A stretch of 44,532 nucleotides of DNA from Escherichia phage vB_EcoP-CC1. The notes under the pieces were generated by a model that was not told the origin of the DNA, did not search any database, and worked only from the letters and a program-made list of their open reading frames with translations. The DNA lies in the sequence record OX457022; one strand, written 5' to 3'. A program made the position numbers and the translations under genes. Positions 18,601-28,857 of the stretch are shown one piece after another (within the stretch, counting starts at the first letter, position 1; each line of letters starts with the position of its first letter).

Positions 18601-19425
18601 AAGAGATTAAAGCAGCACTTGATGGGTGAGAGACAATTACCTAAAGCAGACCTTGAAGAAGTAGGCCTAAGTGAAGATGTCATGAAAAGACTTAAGCGTC
18701 ACTTTGATGACAACCCTCTGTACGCTGAGTACAATGGAGAAAAAGTTCGTATGCTGAACTTTGATGCTATGGAGCCAGACCTGAGAGAGACAGTGGGTGT
18801 TGCTGTGCGAAGAATGTCAGGCCGTCTTATTCAACGTAACTTCATTGGCGATGAAGGTATCTGGATGAATAAATGGTGGGGTAAGGCATTAACGCAGTTT
18901 AAGTCATTCTCTATTGTCTCTATTGAGAAACAGCTAATCCATGATTTACGAGGTGATAAGATTCAGGCTGCACAGATACTTGCATGGTCTACTTTACTAG
19001 GTTATGCATCTTATGCACTACAGATGCAGATGCAAGCGATTGGTAGGGAGGATAGAGACAAGTTCTTGAGGGATAAGTTTGACACACAGAACATCGCTAT
19101 GGGTGTCTTTAATAAACTTCCACAAGTTGCAGGCTTTGGTTTAGCTGGTGATGCTTTGGCAACCTTTGGCCTAATGCCAGACTCCATGATGCAAGCACCG
19201 GGACGCATGGGTTTCCGTCAGCAAGGCTTTGGGGATTTGGTAGCAGGTGCTGGTGTAATAAGTGATACAGTTAATTTGTCACAAGCACTGGTTAAGTATG
19301 CCAGTGGAGACGATGATGTCTCTACGAGGCAGTTGGTAGACAAGGTTCGTCGCCTTGTTCCTTTGGCAAATACTATTGGTGTGGGTCAGATGACTAAAGC
19401 CAGTGTAGATTTATTGGAGGATTGA
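15622..19425 (+). CDS. Internal virion protein C (gp16-position, 1267 aa)
   Basis: Called from size, synteny and the SD TAGGAGG. Confidence 0.8.
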   Translation: MVDSINQNWVAVTQRKLPPTFSQIAEAERKAEAQRANDKVFQTALESEWALYGGQRAYERHTTEFAEQEGYEVPESTKDELSKLYGYEIAQDIVKNVKSPEELQFRMSNAAADKDRADILARNGFTGFSAQIAAGILDPVGWAASLVAAPVAGAVKVGRLGRIIKTAALSGAENAALEAILAQGDYQRGVDDVLAAAGFGMIMGGTIGAATRERIASAGSRTAAERADAVVDDLDTVVKGADEFDSSAARAVREAMEYDAYMAARNYEPLRAREVDADMAILSHTDNLKANASVRMSASEKGQLKKQIRQLEAEAATLKGKKIDTVAEAAAAKGAPKSAADRLDLDVQKKALARRFDEPLADLQARLDELNAKLSRVNNVGKAKEELKRFSSLSREEQIKELGLDAPVRKVEMTRAVRDAIDAIRAERKKTPTEIHAEQVAEDAIKQRADDSVGAKRVEGSEIAGEQFDLSKNMEELMDDLAREAYQSEVRPINLKGLGSVSSVILNSENPVFRGLGLRLLENAQGGAYQGKTASILSDVYGNLIRHAERNRYNDGFSQFIKDNNLRAVDYLNPATTRDFNNQIYTAIVRGIPEDTPRGVKLAAEGIADKLKKALEIRKQAGERGFEDVQSAKDYIPVIYDGIKITEAVNKLGSSEAVIHLLSKGYQTGKYKLGKKAADALAKVQYIRASDSTLSSRVAFDRVVSQQQQAQLIEDLKKAGVPDHIIDNFIEGTELAEMAESVSNRAKASMGINTQAEYGGLKVQDLLNTNVGELAENYGKEAAGGAALAAMGFPTRQSVLNAIDAAERAGRNMAGSNAKAIKQLRAEAEMLRDAVKLIYGNTIDADPNSGIVRGTRRVREITGLLRLGQMGFAQIPELARAISKMGLGTVLKSIPATKFLRSRAARKGGTAQGELLEPELREMEELLGYIGEDNWLTGWNVRHDEFGETADNLGKLSAIIDNGLAMGSRINTILSGFKAVQGGSEKIVARSINKRLKQHLMGERQLPKADLEEVGLSEDVMKRLKRHFDDNPLYAEYNGEKVRMLNFDAMEPDLRETVGVAVRRMSGRLIQRNFIGDEGIWMNKWWGKALTQFKSFSIVSIEKQLIHDLRGDKIQAAQILAWSTLLGYASYALQMQMQAIGREDRDKFLRDKFDTQNIAMGVFNKLPQVAGFGLAGDALATFGLMPDSMMQAPGRMGFRQQGFGDLVAGAGVISDTVNLSQALVKYASGDDDVSTRQLVDKVRRLVPLANTIGVGQMTKASVDLLED

Positions 19426-22400
19426 TGAGTTATACATATACAGACCATGTAGCTAATGGCTCACAGGTTACATTCCCTTTTCGTTTTGCAGGCAGAGATA
19501 AGGCATACATTAGTGCGACAGATGTCCAAGTGGGTTTTGTAGAAGCAGGCACTTGGCTGCCAGCAACAGGTTGGACGCTAAGTGGCACCAATCAGATCAC
19601 TTTCTTAACCCCACCGACAGAAGGTAAACAAATACGAATCAGACGTATTGTAGATAAAATAAACCCATATGCTTACTTCGAGCGGGGTAATGTTTTAGAT
19701 ATTAACTCTTTAAATAACTCATTCATTAAGAACCTGCAAGTCAGTCAAGAAATCCTTGATGGCTTCTTCCCAGAAGGTTTCTACTTCAAGACAGACTTAG
19801 ACATGGGTGGTCATAAGATCATAAACCTACATGAAGGTTCGGAGTCAGGTGATGCTGTAAATTATGATCAGTTTAAAGAGTTATCAGACCGCGTTAATGA
19901 GATTGAGTCAGATTTAACAGGTTTATCTCACAGAACAGTACCTATGTATTATATTGCAACTGGCGGAGAGTCACGTTGGGAGATCGGTCACTGGACTTTC
20001 GACGCTGCAATATTATTTATTAATGGTATATTCCAGAACCAAAACCTAGGAGCTTTTACCATCAGCAACAACGGTTTTAACTTTGCAGAACCATTGCAGA
20101 AGGGGGATGAAGTATATGCCCTTGTAGGAAGCCGCATTGCAGCACCCGATGAGTATGTAACAATCTCTGACTTGAAAGACCCAGATAAAGCATGGAGGCT
20201 AATTGGACGTAAGTACCCATTTGCGACAGATGGAACTTTTATGTCAAAAGTGGTACATGATGTAGACTACTCCAATATCTTCATTGGAGCATCAGGACTT
20301 AGTCAAGGCTTCTGTATTGTAGACACTCCGCAAGGTGCTCGCATGTTCTTCCATCAACCTATCCCAAGCACTAATAAGGTTCGTTTCGTTGAAACAACCT
20401 TTAACCCTGAAGGGGATAATGAAAATCCTTCTGTTATTTCATTCAGCCAGGAACTGGATGATATTGGACACCAGACTGTGTGTGGTGTATATGAGGCGGG
20501 GGGTGTGCGTTTGTACACCTTGAGTGCAGATGAAAAATCTTATTATATCATAGATTGGTTAGGTAATAATACGTCTAATGCACATATGCGTAAGGTGCAG
20601 ATCCCTACGGAGGGTATCTACTCTAAGGACTTATTTGTCTCAGTGGGCATGTCAGAAGATACTAAAACGCTGGTATTCCATGCAACCACCAATACTCAGG
20701 CTTTTGGTAACAAGGATGATGCGAGAGCTATTTACCTCTTCGATAGAAAAACATTGGATTCAACCTCAACTAGAGGTCTTAAGCGTAGATTCGAAGTAGG
20801 AGCACCTGCTGCACCAGATATGGTCTTCCAAGGGGTTGCTTGTGATGACCGCTTCTTGTATATATATCAGGGATATAATGGTGTCCTGCTGTCTCACAAG
20901 ATCTCCGTCTTCACCCTCTCAGGGGAGCATGTACGGGATATTCCCGTTGATAGTGTGCGTGTAAAATATGGAGAAAGGATGTATGGTGACGAAACTTTAG
21001 GGTATCCTGTATTGCAGGAACCGGAAGGTTTGGCAATGTATAAAGGCAAACTTTATATGTTGTGTATGGATTTCTGGTACAAGAATGCAAGTGTAGTTAC
21101 TTTCGCTGGCAGGACTTTTGCTACAAGGAAATCTTCAGCGTTTTCTGGGTACAGTCCATTACAAGCATCATATTGGACACCTACGAACCTAATACCACCT
21201 ACGGGTGCACCAGAGTATAACAAGACTGCTACTTATTCCTGCTCTAATGCTACTAAGCTCAGTAAAGCTATTGTTAGCTTAGAAATAGATGATGGCACAG
21301 GCTTCCCTGCAAGTGTTGGGTGTTCTTTGCCAGAGAGTAGCGCCAGTGTATACCTAAACAACCGAGCGATGAATATGGCTATTGGCCCGAATGAAAACTT
21401 CCAGTTTGGGGTATTTCACCAGAACCTACAGTCATACAAAAACCTGTTACAGCTCAATAGAGAGAACCCAAATACGGATGGATCAGCGGCTGTGTGGAGG
21501 TTGTTCGGAGGTGCGTTCACAGATGACATTCAGAATGAAAGATTTGTTCAGATTAAGCATAGACTTAATCCCACACAAGATGCCATGGAGCTTCGTGCGG
21601 ATGTTGACCTTACGAGCGGTGGTGGGATTAACTTGTATTCTATGAACGACTCTGCCTCTCCTGGTCGAGTAAGGCTATATTGTACTGACGGGTATTCTTA
21701 TTGGTCAGCTCTACTGAGTCCTGTATCCCCATCTTTTCACCCTGATCAAGATAAGACTCTAAACTTAGGTACAGCAAACAACCGTTGGAACCTAGTCCAT
21801 TGTCAAGGTATCCGTATCATCTCTAACGACGAGTTACAGAAGCAAGTCTTTCTTGAAACTACCCGTAAAAAAGGTGCACTACAGATCTCCACTTCCGGCA
21901 ATCTAGGGGTGTGGGATAGTAGCGCAGGTACTTATGTTGTGGCAACCAGACCTGATGGTACAGGCTTTTCACAGGTAGAGATGAGCTTCAAAGGTGATGT
22001 TTTTCCTGAAATAAATAATACTTACAATTTAGGTCGTGAGAATAAGGCATGGGCTAATGCCTACTTTCAAAACGCACCGACTGTTGTCTGTGATGCCAGA
22101 CTTAAAACAGATGCTAGGGAGTTAACAGACGCAGAGAAATCCGCATTCTTAGAGATCTCTAAACTTCCGGCAGTTTGGCAATGGCTTGCTAAACTGGAAG
22201 TAGAAGGAGAGGATGCCCGCTTACACTCTGGATGTACTGTCCAAGCTGCTATCTCGGTTATGGAGAAACATGGCCTAGATTGGACTAAGTATAGTGCTTT
22301 CTGTTATGACAAATGGGATGCCAAGGAGGCTGTCTATGATATAGTGGATGGTAAGGCTATCCTTGTTGAAGAGGCAGTTGAGGCTGGCGACCGTTATCGT

Positions 22401-22508
22401 CTTCGTAGAGAAGAGCTGATGTGGTGGTGCATGAAGGCACAGAATGCTTGGATTGAATCTATTGAGGGGAGGCTGGCGAAATTAGAAGATAAACTCAAGG
22501 AGGTGTAA
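19425..22508 (+). CDS. Tail fibre/tailspike 1: T7 gp17-like N-terminal anchor, unassigned central domain, C-terminal S74-type intramolecular chaperone
   Basis: The N-terminus MSYTYTDHVANGSQVTFPFRF...GHKIINL...GDAVNYDQF fits the T7 tail-fibre N-terminal pattern. The C-terminus NLGRENKAWANAYFQNAPTVVCDARLKTD fits the G....W...Y.......SD.RLK junction, but with Cys in place of Ser. Confidence 0.85.
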   Translation: MSYTYTDHVANGSQVTFPFRFAGRDKAYISATDVQVGFVEAGTWLPATGWTLSGTNQITFLTPPTEGKQIRIRRIVDKINPYAYFERGNVLDINSLNNSFIKNLQVSQEILDGFFPEGFYFKTDLDMGGHKIINLHEGSESGDAVNYDQFKELSDRVNEIESDLTGLSHRTVPMYYIATGGESRWEIGHWTFDAAILFINGIFQNQNLGAFTISNNGFNFAEPLQKGDEVYALVGSRIAAPDEYVTISDLKDPDKAWRLIGRKYPFATDGTFMSKVVHDVDYSNIFIGASGLSQGFCIVDTPQGARMFFHQPIPSTNKVRFVETTFNPEGDNENPSVISFSQELDDIGHQTVCGVYEAGGVRLYTLSADEKSYYIIDWLGNNTSNAHMRKVQIPTEGIYSKDLFVSVGMSEDTKTLVFHATTNTQAFGNKDDARAIYLFDRKTLDSTSTRGLKRRFEVGAPAAPDMVFQGVACDDRFLYIYQGYNGVLLSHKISVFTLSGEHVRDIPVDSVRVKYGERMYGDETLGYPVLQEPEGLAMYKGKLYMLCMDFWYKNASVVTFAGRTFATRKSSAFSGYSPLQASYWTPTNLIPPTGAPEYNKTATYSCSNATKLSKAIVSLEIDDGTGFPASVGCSLPESSASVYLNNRAMNMAIGPNENFQFGVFHQNLQSYKNLLQLNRENPNTDGSAAVWRLFGGAFTDDIQNERFVQIKHRLNPTQDAMELRADVDLTSGGGINLYSMNDSASPGRVRLYCTDGYSYWSALLSPVSPSFHPDQDKTLNLGTANNRWNLVHCQGIRIISNDELQKQVFLETTRKKGALQISTSGNLGVWDSSAGTYVVATRPDGTGFSQVEMSFKGDVFPEINNTYNLGRENKAWANAYFQNAPTVVCDARLKTDARELTDAEKSAFLEISKLPAVWQWLAKLEVEGEDARLHSGCTVQAAISVMEKHGLDWTKYSAFCYDKWDAKEAVYDIVDGKAILVEEAVEAGDRYRLRREELMWWCMKAQNAWIESIEGRLAKLEDKLKEV

Positions 22509-25037: not shown

Positions 25038-25319
25038 ATGGCTAATGATTATAGTAATCAGCCCTTAACTGGTCGCTATGACCGTAAACAGATTACACCA
25101 ACTAGTGAAGCATTAATGCTCCCTGTTGTTACAGAGGAGTCTATTAAGAAGAAAGCCAATGTTATCAATGATGCAACCAAATCTGGTAAACAGAAAGCAG
25201 CAATGGTGTGTCGTCCTGTAGGTGGCACTCTTGAGATTGCCATTGCTACTGGTAGCAAAGAGGATGCAGATTGGTTGTCTGTTAAAATGGATGGCGTTGG
25301 TTTTATTACACCGGCTTAA
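25038..25319 (+). CDS. SGKQ-module protein A (93 aa), unknown function
   Basis: It has a strong SD and is paralogous to the next two ORFs (see findings). Confidence 0.7.
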   Translation: MANDYSNQPLTGRYDRKQITPTSEALMLPVVTEESIKKKANVINDATKSGKQKAAMVCRPVGGTLEIAIATGSKEDADWLSVKMDGVGFITPA

Positions 25320-25336: not shown

Positions 25337-25624
25337 ATGTCTAAGTATGGCGATGCAGGTACGACTACTGGTCAGGCTTTTCGTGTAAAAGCAGTACAAA
25401 CTATTGCAACTGCAATCCCTATGCCTATCGTGGCAGAAGCTGACCTTAAAAAGAAAGATCATCCAATTAATATTGAACACCTATCTGGTAAGCAGAAAGG
25501 TGCTATGGTGGTTGTAGATAAAGGAGATAATAGCCTTTATATTGCTATTGCACGTGGTTCTGCACCAACTGACCAGTGGGATGTAACTACTATGGAAGCT
25601 GTACCTGTAACACCAGGAGCTTAA
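25337..25624 (+). CDS. SGKQ-module protein B (95 aa), unknown function
   Basis: It has a strong SD and is paralogous to proteins A and C. Confidence 0.7.
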   Translation: MSKYGDAGTTTGQAFRVKAVQTIATAIPMPIVAEADLKKKDHPINIEHLSGKQKGAMVVVDKGDNSLYIAIARGSAPTDQWDVTTMEAVPVTPGA

Positions 25625-25625
25625 T

Positions 25626-26315
25626 ATGCTGGGAGTAACAGGACAACGCAATAAGAATGTAGCCACCAAAGTAGTGGCTGATTTAGCTACTGCTGCTACT
25701 GTCGAGGAATTACGAGACACACATAACTCTATTAACCGTGCTGACCTTTCTGGTAAACAAGAAGGTTCTGTTGTTCTTGTTAAGAAAGAGGATGGCAACT
25801 ATTCTATCTTTGTAGCAACAGGTAGCAAGCCTACTGATGTTTGGAAAGAGTTGTCTCCAACAATACCAGAGCAAGAGATGCCTGCTGAATATATTGATAT
25901 GGTTGATATTCAAATTCATCAAGACTCTGCAAGTAACTTACGTATGGATTCTTCTCGCACGAGCTTAATACAAACACCAATGTGGGATACTGAAGGTGAA
26001 TTGCTATTCCGTAATACCCTGAGCGCAACATGTTCTTGTACCATTCTTGCTGACGGTGCATCTGGTGTTCGTCAGGATTTTAATTTTAAGATTAATGGAA
26101 TCTTAGAGCAAGAAGAGCAGTATTATGACATTGACACTCTTATGTGCTCTATTCATTCTGCAACAACAACTAATGGTCTTACACTGTGTATGCCAGATGT
26201 TAAGAGCGCAAAGACCAATAAGATGGTAGTAAAGGTCGACACTATGCAGTCATTAACAATGAGTTTTGATCTTAACTTCCTTGTTGAATGGACGTCACCT
26301 ACGAGGTTACTATAA
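25626..26315 (+). CDS. SGKQ-module protein C (229 aa: module plus a C-terminal domain of about 140 aa), unknown function
   Basis: The SD is AGGAG. The N-terminal 75 aa are paralogous to proteins A and B. Confidence 0.7.
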   Translation: MLGVTGQRNKNVATKVVADLATAATVEELRDTHNSINRADLSGKQEGSVVLVKKEDGNYSIFVATGSKPTDVWKELSPTIPEQEMPAEYIDMVDIQIHQDSASNLRMDSSRTSLIQTPMWDTEGELLFRNTLSATCSCTILADGASGVRQDFNFKINGILEQEEQYYDIDTLMCSIHSATTTNGLTLCMPDVKSAKTNKMVVKVDTMQSLTMSFDLNFLVEWTSPTRLL

Positions 26316-27333: not shown

Positions 27334-28857
27334 ATGGCTAAACTAACGAGAGTCACTGACTGGCTTGTTAAGGTAAAGTCCAGACTCACTGGTGCAGTAG
27401 AGCGACTGCTTGAAGATAAGTTAAATGACACGGTTAGTGTTAAGGACTTCGGTGCTAAGGGTGACGGTGTGACAGACGACACACAAGCATTTGCTGCCGC
27501 CTCAGCCGCATCGCCTCAAGGTGTTTATGTGCCTGACGGAACATATTTATTACCAGAAGATATTAATGGCAGGTTCTATGGTTCTGGTAAACGCATCAAG
27601 GCTGTAGGTGATGGTGGTATTCCTTTTACCAATGTAGCTCAGTCACATAGTAACCTAATATTAGGATATGATGCTGCAAAGGATTACACGGACGAAGGGA
27701 AAGGCAACCAATTAGTATTACTTGGCCCAAGCTCCGGTCGTAACCTTACCACTGGTACTAACTCCATTGTGGTAGGTGTTGGTGGCCTATCGGGTGATAC
27801 ATTAGAAGATGCACTAACAGATAAATCACCTTTCACTGGTACAGAGATTATTAGCATTGGTATCAATGCTCTTAAGAAAACTACCACTGGTAACAACATG
27901 ATTGGTATTGGTCGTGATGCCCTGAACGAGTGTAAGGATGGAAGATTCAACGTAGCTATAGGTATGTCTGCTTTGCAGCAGCTACACTCTGGTGAGGCTA
28001 ACGTAGCAATAGGGCGTTCAGCCGGTATGCGTACTGGCATCTTCACTAACGAAGATGGTGTACGATTAGGCTATACAAAATGTAGCGGTAATACCTTAAT
28101 AGGTAACGCGGCTGGTCGTGAATTGAAGTCAGGTAATCATAACACCGCCGTAGGCAATGGTGCTATGCGAGGTGTCAGTTCTGATATTAATCCATATACT
28201 GGCACTCTAGAGGGTAATTTTAATACAGCTATTGGTGTTGATACCTTAAACTCCTTAGCATCTGGTGAGTTGAACACCATGATTGGCGCAAGGGCTGGGC
28301 GTAAATTACCTAGTGGCTCTGGTAACATCTTCATCGGTGCGGATGCAGGTGCAGGTATTAACATTGAAAAGTCTAACACTCTCATTATTAACAACCACAC
28401 TGGCTTACCTTTCGTAGAAGGTATTATGGATGGTGCTCAGAGTGAGAATAACTACTTACGTGTTGATGGAAGTGTAGCACCTCAGATTGATAACACAAGA
28501 ACTTGTGGTCAGTCTAGCCGTAGATGGCAGACTGTCTTTTCTACCAATGGTGTTATCCAGACATCGGATGGACGATGCAAGGATGTCTACGATATTGCCA
28601 AGACGGAGTACATGGCTGGTCTAGAGTTATCTTCTAGTATGATTAAGTTCAAATGGACAGATACTAAAGAAGATAAGTATCACTTCGGTTGTCTGGCACA
28701 AGAGGTCATGCTGATTATGGAGAAACATGGGTTAAACCCTCTGGATTATTCCCTCGTTACCTATGATGCTGAAGCAGATATGTATGGTGTTAACTATGCA
28801 GAATTGTCTTGCTTCTGTATCGCAGCAATGTCCAATCATGTACTAGGCAGTGCGTAA
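27334..28857 (+). CDS. Tail fibre/tailspike 2 with a C-terminal S74-type chaperone
   Basis: AGGAG precedes the ATG at 27334. VKDFGAKGDGVTDDT is a pectate-lyase-3-type motif. About 9 repeats fit the N.(A/I/V)IG..A(L/G) pattern. The C-terminus reads RRWQTVFSTNGVIQTSDGRCKDV...YHFGCLAQEV. Confidence 0.8.
   Translation: MAKLTRVTDWLVKVKSRLTGAVERLLEDKLNDTVSVKDFGAKGDGVTDDTQAFAAASAASPQGVYVPDGTYLLPEDINGRFYGSGKRIKAVGDGGIPFTNVAQSHSNLILGYDAAKDYTDEGKGNQLVLLGPSSGRNLTTGTNSIVVGVGGLSGDTLEDALTDKSPFTGTEIISIGINALKKTTTGNNMIGIGRDALNECKDGRFNVAIGMSALQQLHSGEANVAIGRSAGMRTGIFTNEDGVRLGYTKCSGNTLIGNAAGRELKSGNHNTAVGNGAMRGVSSDINPYTGTLEGNFNTAIGVDTLNSLASGELNTMIGARAGRKLPSGSGNIFIGADAGAGINIEKSNTLIINNHTGLPFVEGIMDGAQSENNYLRVDGSVAPQIDNTRTCGQSSRRWQTVFSTNGVIQTSDGRCKDVYDIAKTEYMAGLELSSSMIKFKWTDTKEDKYHFGCLAQEVMLIMEKHGLNPLDYSLVTYDAEADMYGVNYAELSCFCIAAMSNHVLGSA

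Follow-up and report, generated by a model that had tools for sequence, protein, structure and literature searches.

Can a self-cleaving junction of a family that uses a nucleophilic Ser still work when this residue is replaced by Cys in nature? The question is raised by the tail fibre 1 gene of Escherichia phage vB_EcoP-CC1 (sequence record OX457022), which was analysed here over a stretch of 44,532 nucleotides, called the window in the following. The gene (19425..22508; all features of the window described below lie on the + strand) encodes 1027 residues plus the stop codon, with limits taken from the list of open reading frames (ORFs) and found to be the same in the GenBank coding sequences of phages CC2, R4596, Ro_P3a and 101117UKE2. 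An earlier note on this DNA had pointed out that the protein carries a Cys at the autoproteolytic junction of its Peptidase S74 domain, and had considered two outcomes, namely that a Cys/Lys dyad might still cleave with redox sensitivity, or that the domain might be retained in the mature fibre. In this study we locate the junction by profile and structure comparisons, survey how often Cys occurs there, compare the Cys form with a Ser form of the same fibre, and find that a working Cys/Lys dyad is the more probable outcome.

The mechanism of S74 domains is known from several members. According to PMC3828593, which summarises Schulz et al. 2010, the Lys takes a proton from the Ser hydroxyl, which attacks the adjacent scissile bond; the nucleophile thus acts on the peptide bond just before itself (PMC3828593; PMC4690869). 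Cleavage occurs N-terminal to the nucleophile, between Thr1263 and Ser1264 in T5 (PMC4690869) and between P586 and S587 in MyRF (PMC8326128). In endoNF (Arg897) and T5 (Arg1250), an Arg of the folded triple beta-helix from the neighbouring chain completes the site as folding sensor and partner of the oxyanion (PMC8326128; PMC4690869), therefore cleavage reports correct trimer folding in these proteins, while MyRF cleaves without that Arg (PMC8326128). The released chaperone domain carries the nucleophile away. For the T5 mutant S1264A, crystals could be grown from protein that had been produced and purified in uncleaved form (PMC4690869).

Identification of the S74 junction in tail fibre 1

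Positions 22089-22106 read TGT GAT GCC AGA CTT AAA and are translated into C-D-A-R-L-K, in which the Cys is residue 889 (22089..22091) and the Lys is residue 894 (22104..22106) as counted from the ATG at 19425. The Pfam profile PF13884 (Peptidase_S74) matches residues 889-951 on its profile positions 1-58 with an E-value of 1.1e-08 and a score of 35.7 bits (cutoff 22), and Cys889 thus stands at profile position 1, where the family has the nucleophilic Ser, with Asp890 (+1) and Lys894 (+5) intact. An internal control is given by tail fibre/spike 2 of the same phage (27334..28857; 507 residues; Pfam PF12708 and PF13884), which also has matches in the PDB and shows the canonical SDGRCK at 28564-28581. 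Its PF13884 match runs from residue 411 to residue 467, again on profile positions 1-58, and the first residue is Ser411 of SDGRCK. Since Ser411 of fibre 2 and Cys889 of fibre 1 both open the profile match, Cys889 is in the nucleophile column.

The same column is obtained from solved structures. A phmmer search against all PDB chains gave T5 pb1 (4uw8, the S1264A mutant) as the best match with an E-value of 1.2e-24 over the entire domain, in which Cys889 is opposite position 1264 and Lys894, the predicted general base, is opposite Lys1269; other matches to the C-terminus are the tail-fibre, tail-spike or chaperone entries 7y5s, 9vvr, 6eu4, 3gud and 3gw6. The last 139 residues (889-1027; 22089..22505; 16.0 kDa) constitute the intramolecular chaperone, predicted to be released after trimer folding. 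The 35 residues before the junction (854-888; 21984..22088), ending in ...EINNTYNLGRENKAWANAYFQNAPTVV, are predicted to form the end of the mature fibre. They align without gaps to stalk residues 1236-1263 of T5 pb1 and to the stalks of 6eu4 and 9vvr, and Val888 (22086-22088) would be the new C-terminus, by comparison with the cleavage sites of T5 and MyRF. In an AlphaFold2 (AF2) monomer model of residues 854-1027 the core is well predicted, with a predicted local distance difference test score (pLDDT) of 62-93 over model residues 45-174, and a Foldseek comparison of this model with the PDB gave a probability of 1.00 for 4uw8, 3gw6 and 3gud alone. These are the three chaperone domains with a solved structure, whose fold consists of a helical hairpin, beta "tentacle" hairpins and a C-terminal coiled-coil helix. 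Confidence is low at the junction in the monomer (model residues 1-44; pLDDT <50), so that the model speaks for the fold and not for the active-site geometry.

In short, fibre 1 departs from the family in the Ser at profile position 1 and agrees with it in profile score, chaperone fold, C-terminal position after a stalk and the Lys at +5, which is found in 142 of 144 representative homologues. Judged by these comparisons, fibre 1 ends in a genuine Peptidase S74 intramolecular chaperone, which is typical of such domains except for the Cys in place of the nucleophilic Ser. The Cys junction proposed in the earlier note for 22089-22106 is therefore borne out by the codon, the Pfam profile and the PDB alignment, and the profile alignment puts the junction at exactly residue 889, where the note had allowed that it might be elsewhere. 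Its canonical junction of fibre 2 is likewise confirmed by the coordinates and the profile match, and the Ser911/Lys916 pair which it gave for endoNF agrees with PMC8326128.

Frequency of Cys among S74 junctions

A HMMER search of 1.84 billion cluster representatives returned 6400 relatives at E<=1e-3. The best 150 of these 6400 were mapped and, together with 17 matches of a word-indexed protein search with the fibre 1 domain, constituted a junction census in which 161 sequences span the junction. Ser is present in 157 of the 161, and the genuine non-Ser sequences belong to the window's own clade and to a metagenomic depolymerase-like protein, P0064 (ATCDADHKTDP), with no others; two more non-Ser calls were rejected as misalignments in repeat-rich giants. 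A 56-sequence profile of the post-junction region gave 21 short fragments in the word-indexed database, all without the junction. Locus scans by peptide patterns that exclude the junction itself gave 78 Ser and 1 Cys in IMG/VR, 41 Ser in genome and metagenome contigs, and 77 Ser for the T5-like subfamily in a second IMG/VR scan. The sole Cys in these scans is in the tail protein YP_009841904 of Serratia phage vB_SmaA_3M (ISTCDAERKTEPR).

Taken together, three independent Cys lineages stand against Ser in about 353 other sampled junctions, i.e. roughly 1%, which is a rough figure as the samples overlap and are redundant. No Thr was found at the nucleophile position among the ~350 sampled S74 junctions. 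It had been considered beforehand that Cys might turn out to be a common variant of the family, and the survey speaks against this. What is more, Asp at +1 and Lys at +5 are kept in all three Cys lineages, namely CDARLK in fibre 1, CDADHK in P0064 and CDAERK in Serratia phage 3M.

The two other lineages, the Serratia phage 3M tail protein with the junction STCDAERK (L086 1624-3483, equal to NC_048736.1 34148-36007) and P0064 with ATCDADHK (L210 5001-7424), resemble fibre 1: they, too, are receptor-binding proteins from enterobacterial phages in which the nucleophile column holds Cys, followed by the Asp (+1) and the Lys (+5). Unlike fibre 1, they are singletons whose nearest relatives all have Ser, and they have unrelated fibre bodies. 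The P0064 gene belongs to an array of tailspike or depolymerase-like genes, at least five in number, on a contig of ~94 kb. A word-indexed search with the P0064 domain gave 12 matches, all of them with Ser or truncated. For the Serratia phage 3M module, no relatives of more than 60% identity were found in GenBank phages.

A different exchange was seen in L144 (IMGVR_UViG_3300047533_000002), where the junction upstream of position 601 reads T-S-C-A-T-K-K, so that the Ser is kept and Cys replaces the Asp at +1, a position with Asp in 140 of 144 representatives.

Cys and Ser alleles of the same fibre

The fibre 1 protein is identical to CAI8690804.1 of phage vB_EcoP-CC1. By megablast, the 3081-nt gene is 100.0% identical to that of Escherichia phage vB_EcoP-CC2 (OX638290.1, 44,531 bp), which is classified as Autographiviridae, Molineuxvirinae, Vectrevirus, and a base-by-base comparison revealed 1 nucleotide and 1 residue of difference. 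Five more phages, isolated on E. coli or Raoultella, have the gene with 97-99% identity. The TGT codon of Cys889 is also present in phages CC2, R4596, Ro_P3a and 101117UKE2; altogether the Cys allele is carried by all isolates that have been sequenced from this group of Vectrevirus, among them seven with names, whose hosts are E. coli and Raoultella, and by many contigs (metagenomic; Logan, ENA). In the 90%-identity cluster of the fibre, for which 15 of 24 members are listed, the Cys form T[VI]VCDARLKTDAREL occurs in 11 of the 15 and the Ser form TIVSDARLKTPAREL in 4. Cys889 is not a sequencing error, because TGT recurs in independent isolates and in these 11 listed members, and most of the 15 listed distinct sequences of this fibre have the Cys allele.

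The Ser allele (P0018, P0184, P0189 and P0191, and Logan contig L005) is found in the same 1027-residue fibre of a syntenic Vectrevirus genome, for example on the 44.7-kb contig of P0018, whose gene order is the same as in the window. The two alleles share the junction context NLGRENKAWANAYFQNAPT-[IV]V-x-DARLK. They differ in Ser (TCC) versus Cys (TGT), which requires two changes in the codon, and at 23-25 positions in the C-terminal 174 residues; the junction of the Ser allele reads TIVSDARLK. Compared with the P0018 contig, residues 1-800 are 97-100% identical, versus 82-93% for the last ~180 residues. At the DNA level, identity to L005 drops sharply from about nucleotide 2550 of the gene (near codon 850) to the stop codon and returns to 95-99% in the holin gene. 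The block 21972..22508 is accordingly delimited as a recombinant cassette by the 150-nt identity profile and by synonymous divergence (dS) against L005 8548-9084, with 75-87% DNA identity to the Ser-allele phage, versus 95-100% in the rest of the gene. Residues 1-800 have a dS of 0.063, as compared with 1.62 in residues 889-1027, where synonymous sites are saturated; for the latter, the non-synonymous divergence (dN) is 0.099 and dN/dS is 0.06. The identity drop together with these dS values indicates that the two chaperone modules are anciently diverged cassettes, swapped by recombination onto one fibre body and both under strong purifying selection.

It seems from these comparisons that C-terminal chaperone modules are exchanged independently of the receptor-binding body. 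Within the Cys allele, copies differ by 0-3 residues. A selective sweep on the Cys module was considered in view of its 0-1 nucleotide differences versus 1-3.5% in the fibre bodies, and was rejected, as the low-diversity stretch begins about 450 nt upstream. Nearly all of the differences among Cys-allele phages (30-89 per pair) are located at 19725-21525 (nucleotides ~300-2100 of the gene), presumably the receptor-binding part, while the N-terminal adaptor and the last ~1000 nt of the gene are almost invariant.

Junction context in comparison with solved relatives

The closest solved relative, the T5 pb1 chaperone (PDB 4UW8; Ser1264/Lys1269), shares with fibre 1 the x-D-A-R-L-K motif, the C-terminal fibre position and the fold. 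It differs in having Ser instead of Cys, Thr instead of Val at P1, Arg1250 where fibre 1 has Ala875 (with Lys874 adjoining), and Asp1239 where fibre 1 has Asn864. The endoNF domain (PDB 3GW6; Ser911/Lys916), founder of MEROPS S74 and PF13884, is of the same Pfam family with the same fold and dyad spacing (sequence match E 1e-09), and differs in its Ser911 and in its dependence on Arg897 of the neighbouring chain; in the alignment with fibre 1, these two columns hold Cys889 and a residue other than Arg. In 9vvr the Arg comes one position earlier. The Val at P1, Ala875 and Asn864 are also present in the Ser allele, and a TVV before the junction Ser as well as xAW features occur in the solved spikes 6eu4 and 9vvr. 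Since they are common to the Ser allele and partly to 6eu4 and 9vvr, these non-canonical features are, on the alignments, subfamily traits and not a decay that accompanies the Cys.

Proposed cleavage by a Cys/Lys dyad and its alternatives

A direct precedent for the exchange exists in MYRF, a bona fide S74 domain, in which cleavage survives the exchange S587C but is lost with S587A and K592H/R/M (Bujalka et al. 2013, PMC3742440). The MYRF ICA S587C mutant resembles fibre 1 in having Cys in the S74 nucleophile column and Lys at +5, and differs in that it is engineered, belongs to a eukaryotic membrane-bound transcription factor, has Pro at P1 and has a stalk without a catalytic part. In the companion MYRF paper (PMC3742443) there was no match to nucleophile-mutant terms. 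Ser, Thr and Cys can also stand in for each other in related autoproteolytic proteins that attack the peptide bond before their nucleophile. For CwpV, T413S and T413C were found to cleave at a reduced rate and T413A and T413V not at all (PMC3256870), and glycosylasparaginase is reported to behave in the same way in that paper. As for a natural Cys junction in a phage fibre, no description was found in the literature, with incomplete coverage, the engineered MYRF S587C being what was found.

Because MYRF S587C cleaves, because Cys arose three times with Lys at +5 each time, and because Cys is the majority allele of this fibre, we propose with a probability of roughly 0.68 that Cys889 and Lys894 form a working dyad, which would cleave between Val888 and Cys889 through a thioester, like other S74 junctions but with thiol chemistry. 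By analogy, efficient cleavage of fibre 1 may be expected with a chance of about two thirds. In the proposed scheme three chains would fold into the trimeric stalk, Lys894 would then deprotonate the thiol of Cys889, the thiol would attack the carbonyl of Val888 in an N-to-S acyl shift, and the thioester would be hydrolysed. From a precursor chain of 114.8 kDa, the 139-residue chaperone (16.0 kDa, with an N-terminal Cys) would dissociate and leave a mature fibre of 98.8 kDa ending in ...NAPTVV. Of the two outcomes named in the earlier note, cleavage is thus the better supported, by MYRF S587C and by the Lys kept in all Cys lineages, but the redox sensitivity attached to it has to be narrowed: the Cys would leave with the chaperone, therefore the mature fibre would gain no thiol, and any redox sensitivity would be limited to maturation and not concern the virion. 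The thiol chemistry is also less novel than was implied there, since the Ser-to-Cys exchange has already been tested in the S74 family with MYRF. The junction descends from an S74 junction and fits best into this family as a natural variant with a Cys nucleophile, whose likely behaviour is predictable.

Several points weigh against such cleavage. As cited above from PMC3256870, replacing a native Thr by Cys slows the reaction in CwpV and glycosylasparaginase. Two residues with a role in the phage mechanism are non-canonical, as Val stands at P1 in place of Thr, and Ala875, with Lys874 beside it, in place of the "sensor" Arg (T5 Arg1250). The conservation of Lys894 among copies of the Cys allele carries no information, since these are so close to each other that the allele must be young, and purifying selection on the module is expected from its folding function alone and is no proof of cleavage. 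In addition, literature searches on the names of Cys-carrying phages gave no cleavage data for this protein or another natural Cys variant, and no sign of virion proteomics.

One alternative is that the junction is cleavage-dead and that the 16-kDa chaperone stays as a permanent distal cap, which the phage tolerates or exploits. The Val at P1 and the Ala in the Arg column could be cited for it. The nucleophile is also unlike that of ~99% of homologues, the uncleaved T5 S1264A protein indicates that loss of cleavage need not be lethal (PMC4690869), and selection on the module would persist for folding alone; nevertheless the Val at P1 and the Ala in the canonical Arg column are found in the Ser allele too, and MYRF S587C cleaves (PMC3742440). 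Moreover, a dead junction should have drifted to Ala, Gly or other residues, with drift of the Lys at +5 as well, whereas Cys only was found, each time with Lys at +5. We thus regard a permanently capped fibre as unlikely, though worth keeping in mind. Cleavage might instead be conditional or slow, with a maturation that depends on redox or thiol state or runs slower than with Ser, giving virions with mixed capped and uncapped fibres and a possible regulation. The lowered rates of CwpV and glycosylasparaginase on exchange of Thr for Ser or Cys (PMC3256870) would fit this, and the coexistence of Ser and Cys alleles on one fibre body would allow for a difference in function. However, there is no evidence of such a difference, and as the modules differ at 23-25 residues, cassette exchange alone explains the coexistence. 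Furthermore, the thiol is free during fibre assembly, which takes place in a reducing environment, the cytoplasm, and we consider conditional or slow cleavage rather improbable.

Even a little less probable, and speculative, is that the natural Cys would alter the biology and not the chemistry alone. The Val888 thioester might live long enough to react with a nucleophile other than water, such as a small amine or thiol or the side chain of a Lys, and the fibre C-terminus would be cross-linked or modified in this way, or cleavage would be gated by thiols with the chaperone as a removable tip cap. If true, the S74 junction would be one with regulation or ligation, a type not known to have been described for phage fibres. 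By comparison, the chance that the Cys is an artefact of sequencing, assembly or a mis-placed junction is close to nil. No point in its favour was found, and it is refuted by the recurrence of TGT in independent isolates, which come from separate laboratories and various hosts, and in contigs of Logan and ENA, and by profile, pairwise and fold comparisons that all put the junction at residue 889.

Significance of a natural Cys junction

If cleavage by the Cys889/Lys894 dyad is confirmed, S74 would become a family with naturally mixed Ser and Cys nucleophiles, like the N-terminal nucleophile hydrolases and inteins, and pipelines that call members inactive when the catalytic Ser is lacking would mis-annotate such receptor-binding proteins. 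The understanding of the family mechanism would be unchanged, as the tolerance of a Ser-to-Cys exchange has already been shown in MYRF. The Ser and Cys modules on a near-identical fibre body form a natural pair for measuring the effect of the nucleophile on maturation rate and phage fitness. For the expression of fibres or depolymerases, the practical points are that the mature C-terminus is predicted at Val888 and that the fragment set free would begin with Cys, and a thioester junction gated by trimerisation could be of interest for protein ligation chemistry.

Other observations in the window

The start of the fibre 1 gene overlaps the stop of the gene for a gp16-like internal virion protein, and the order is that gene, fibre 1, and then the holin and terminase genes. 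At its N-terminus, fibre 1 has a T7-type tail-attachment domain at residues 3-151 (19431..19877; Pfam PF03906 Phage_T7_tail, E 2e-08, 34.5 bits, cutoff 25.2). Residues 343-540 have a weak Pfam match, below the cutoff, to a 5-bladed beta-propeller receptor-binding platform (E 0.0057). In the chaperone domain, a second Cys, Cys937 (22230-22232), lies in the highly conserved R-x-H-x-G-P-T-V-Q motif, which reads HSGC or HAGC in the two fibre 1 alleles and HFGC in fibre 2, and most relatives have Pro, Met or Leu at this position.

Between the terminase gene and an endolysin-like gene there are three tandem paralogous ORFs of 93, 95 and 229 residues (25038-25319, 25337-25624 and 25626-26315), which are annotated as hypothetical in GenBank. 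They share an N-terminal module of ~70 residues with the motif SGKQ(K/E)G/A..V, at 39-41% identity (E 4e-12 and 6e-12).

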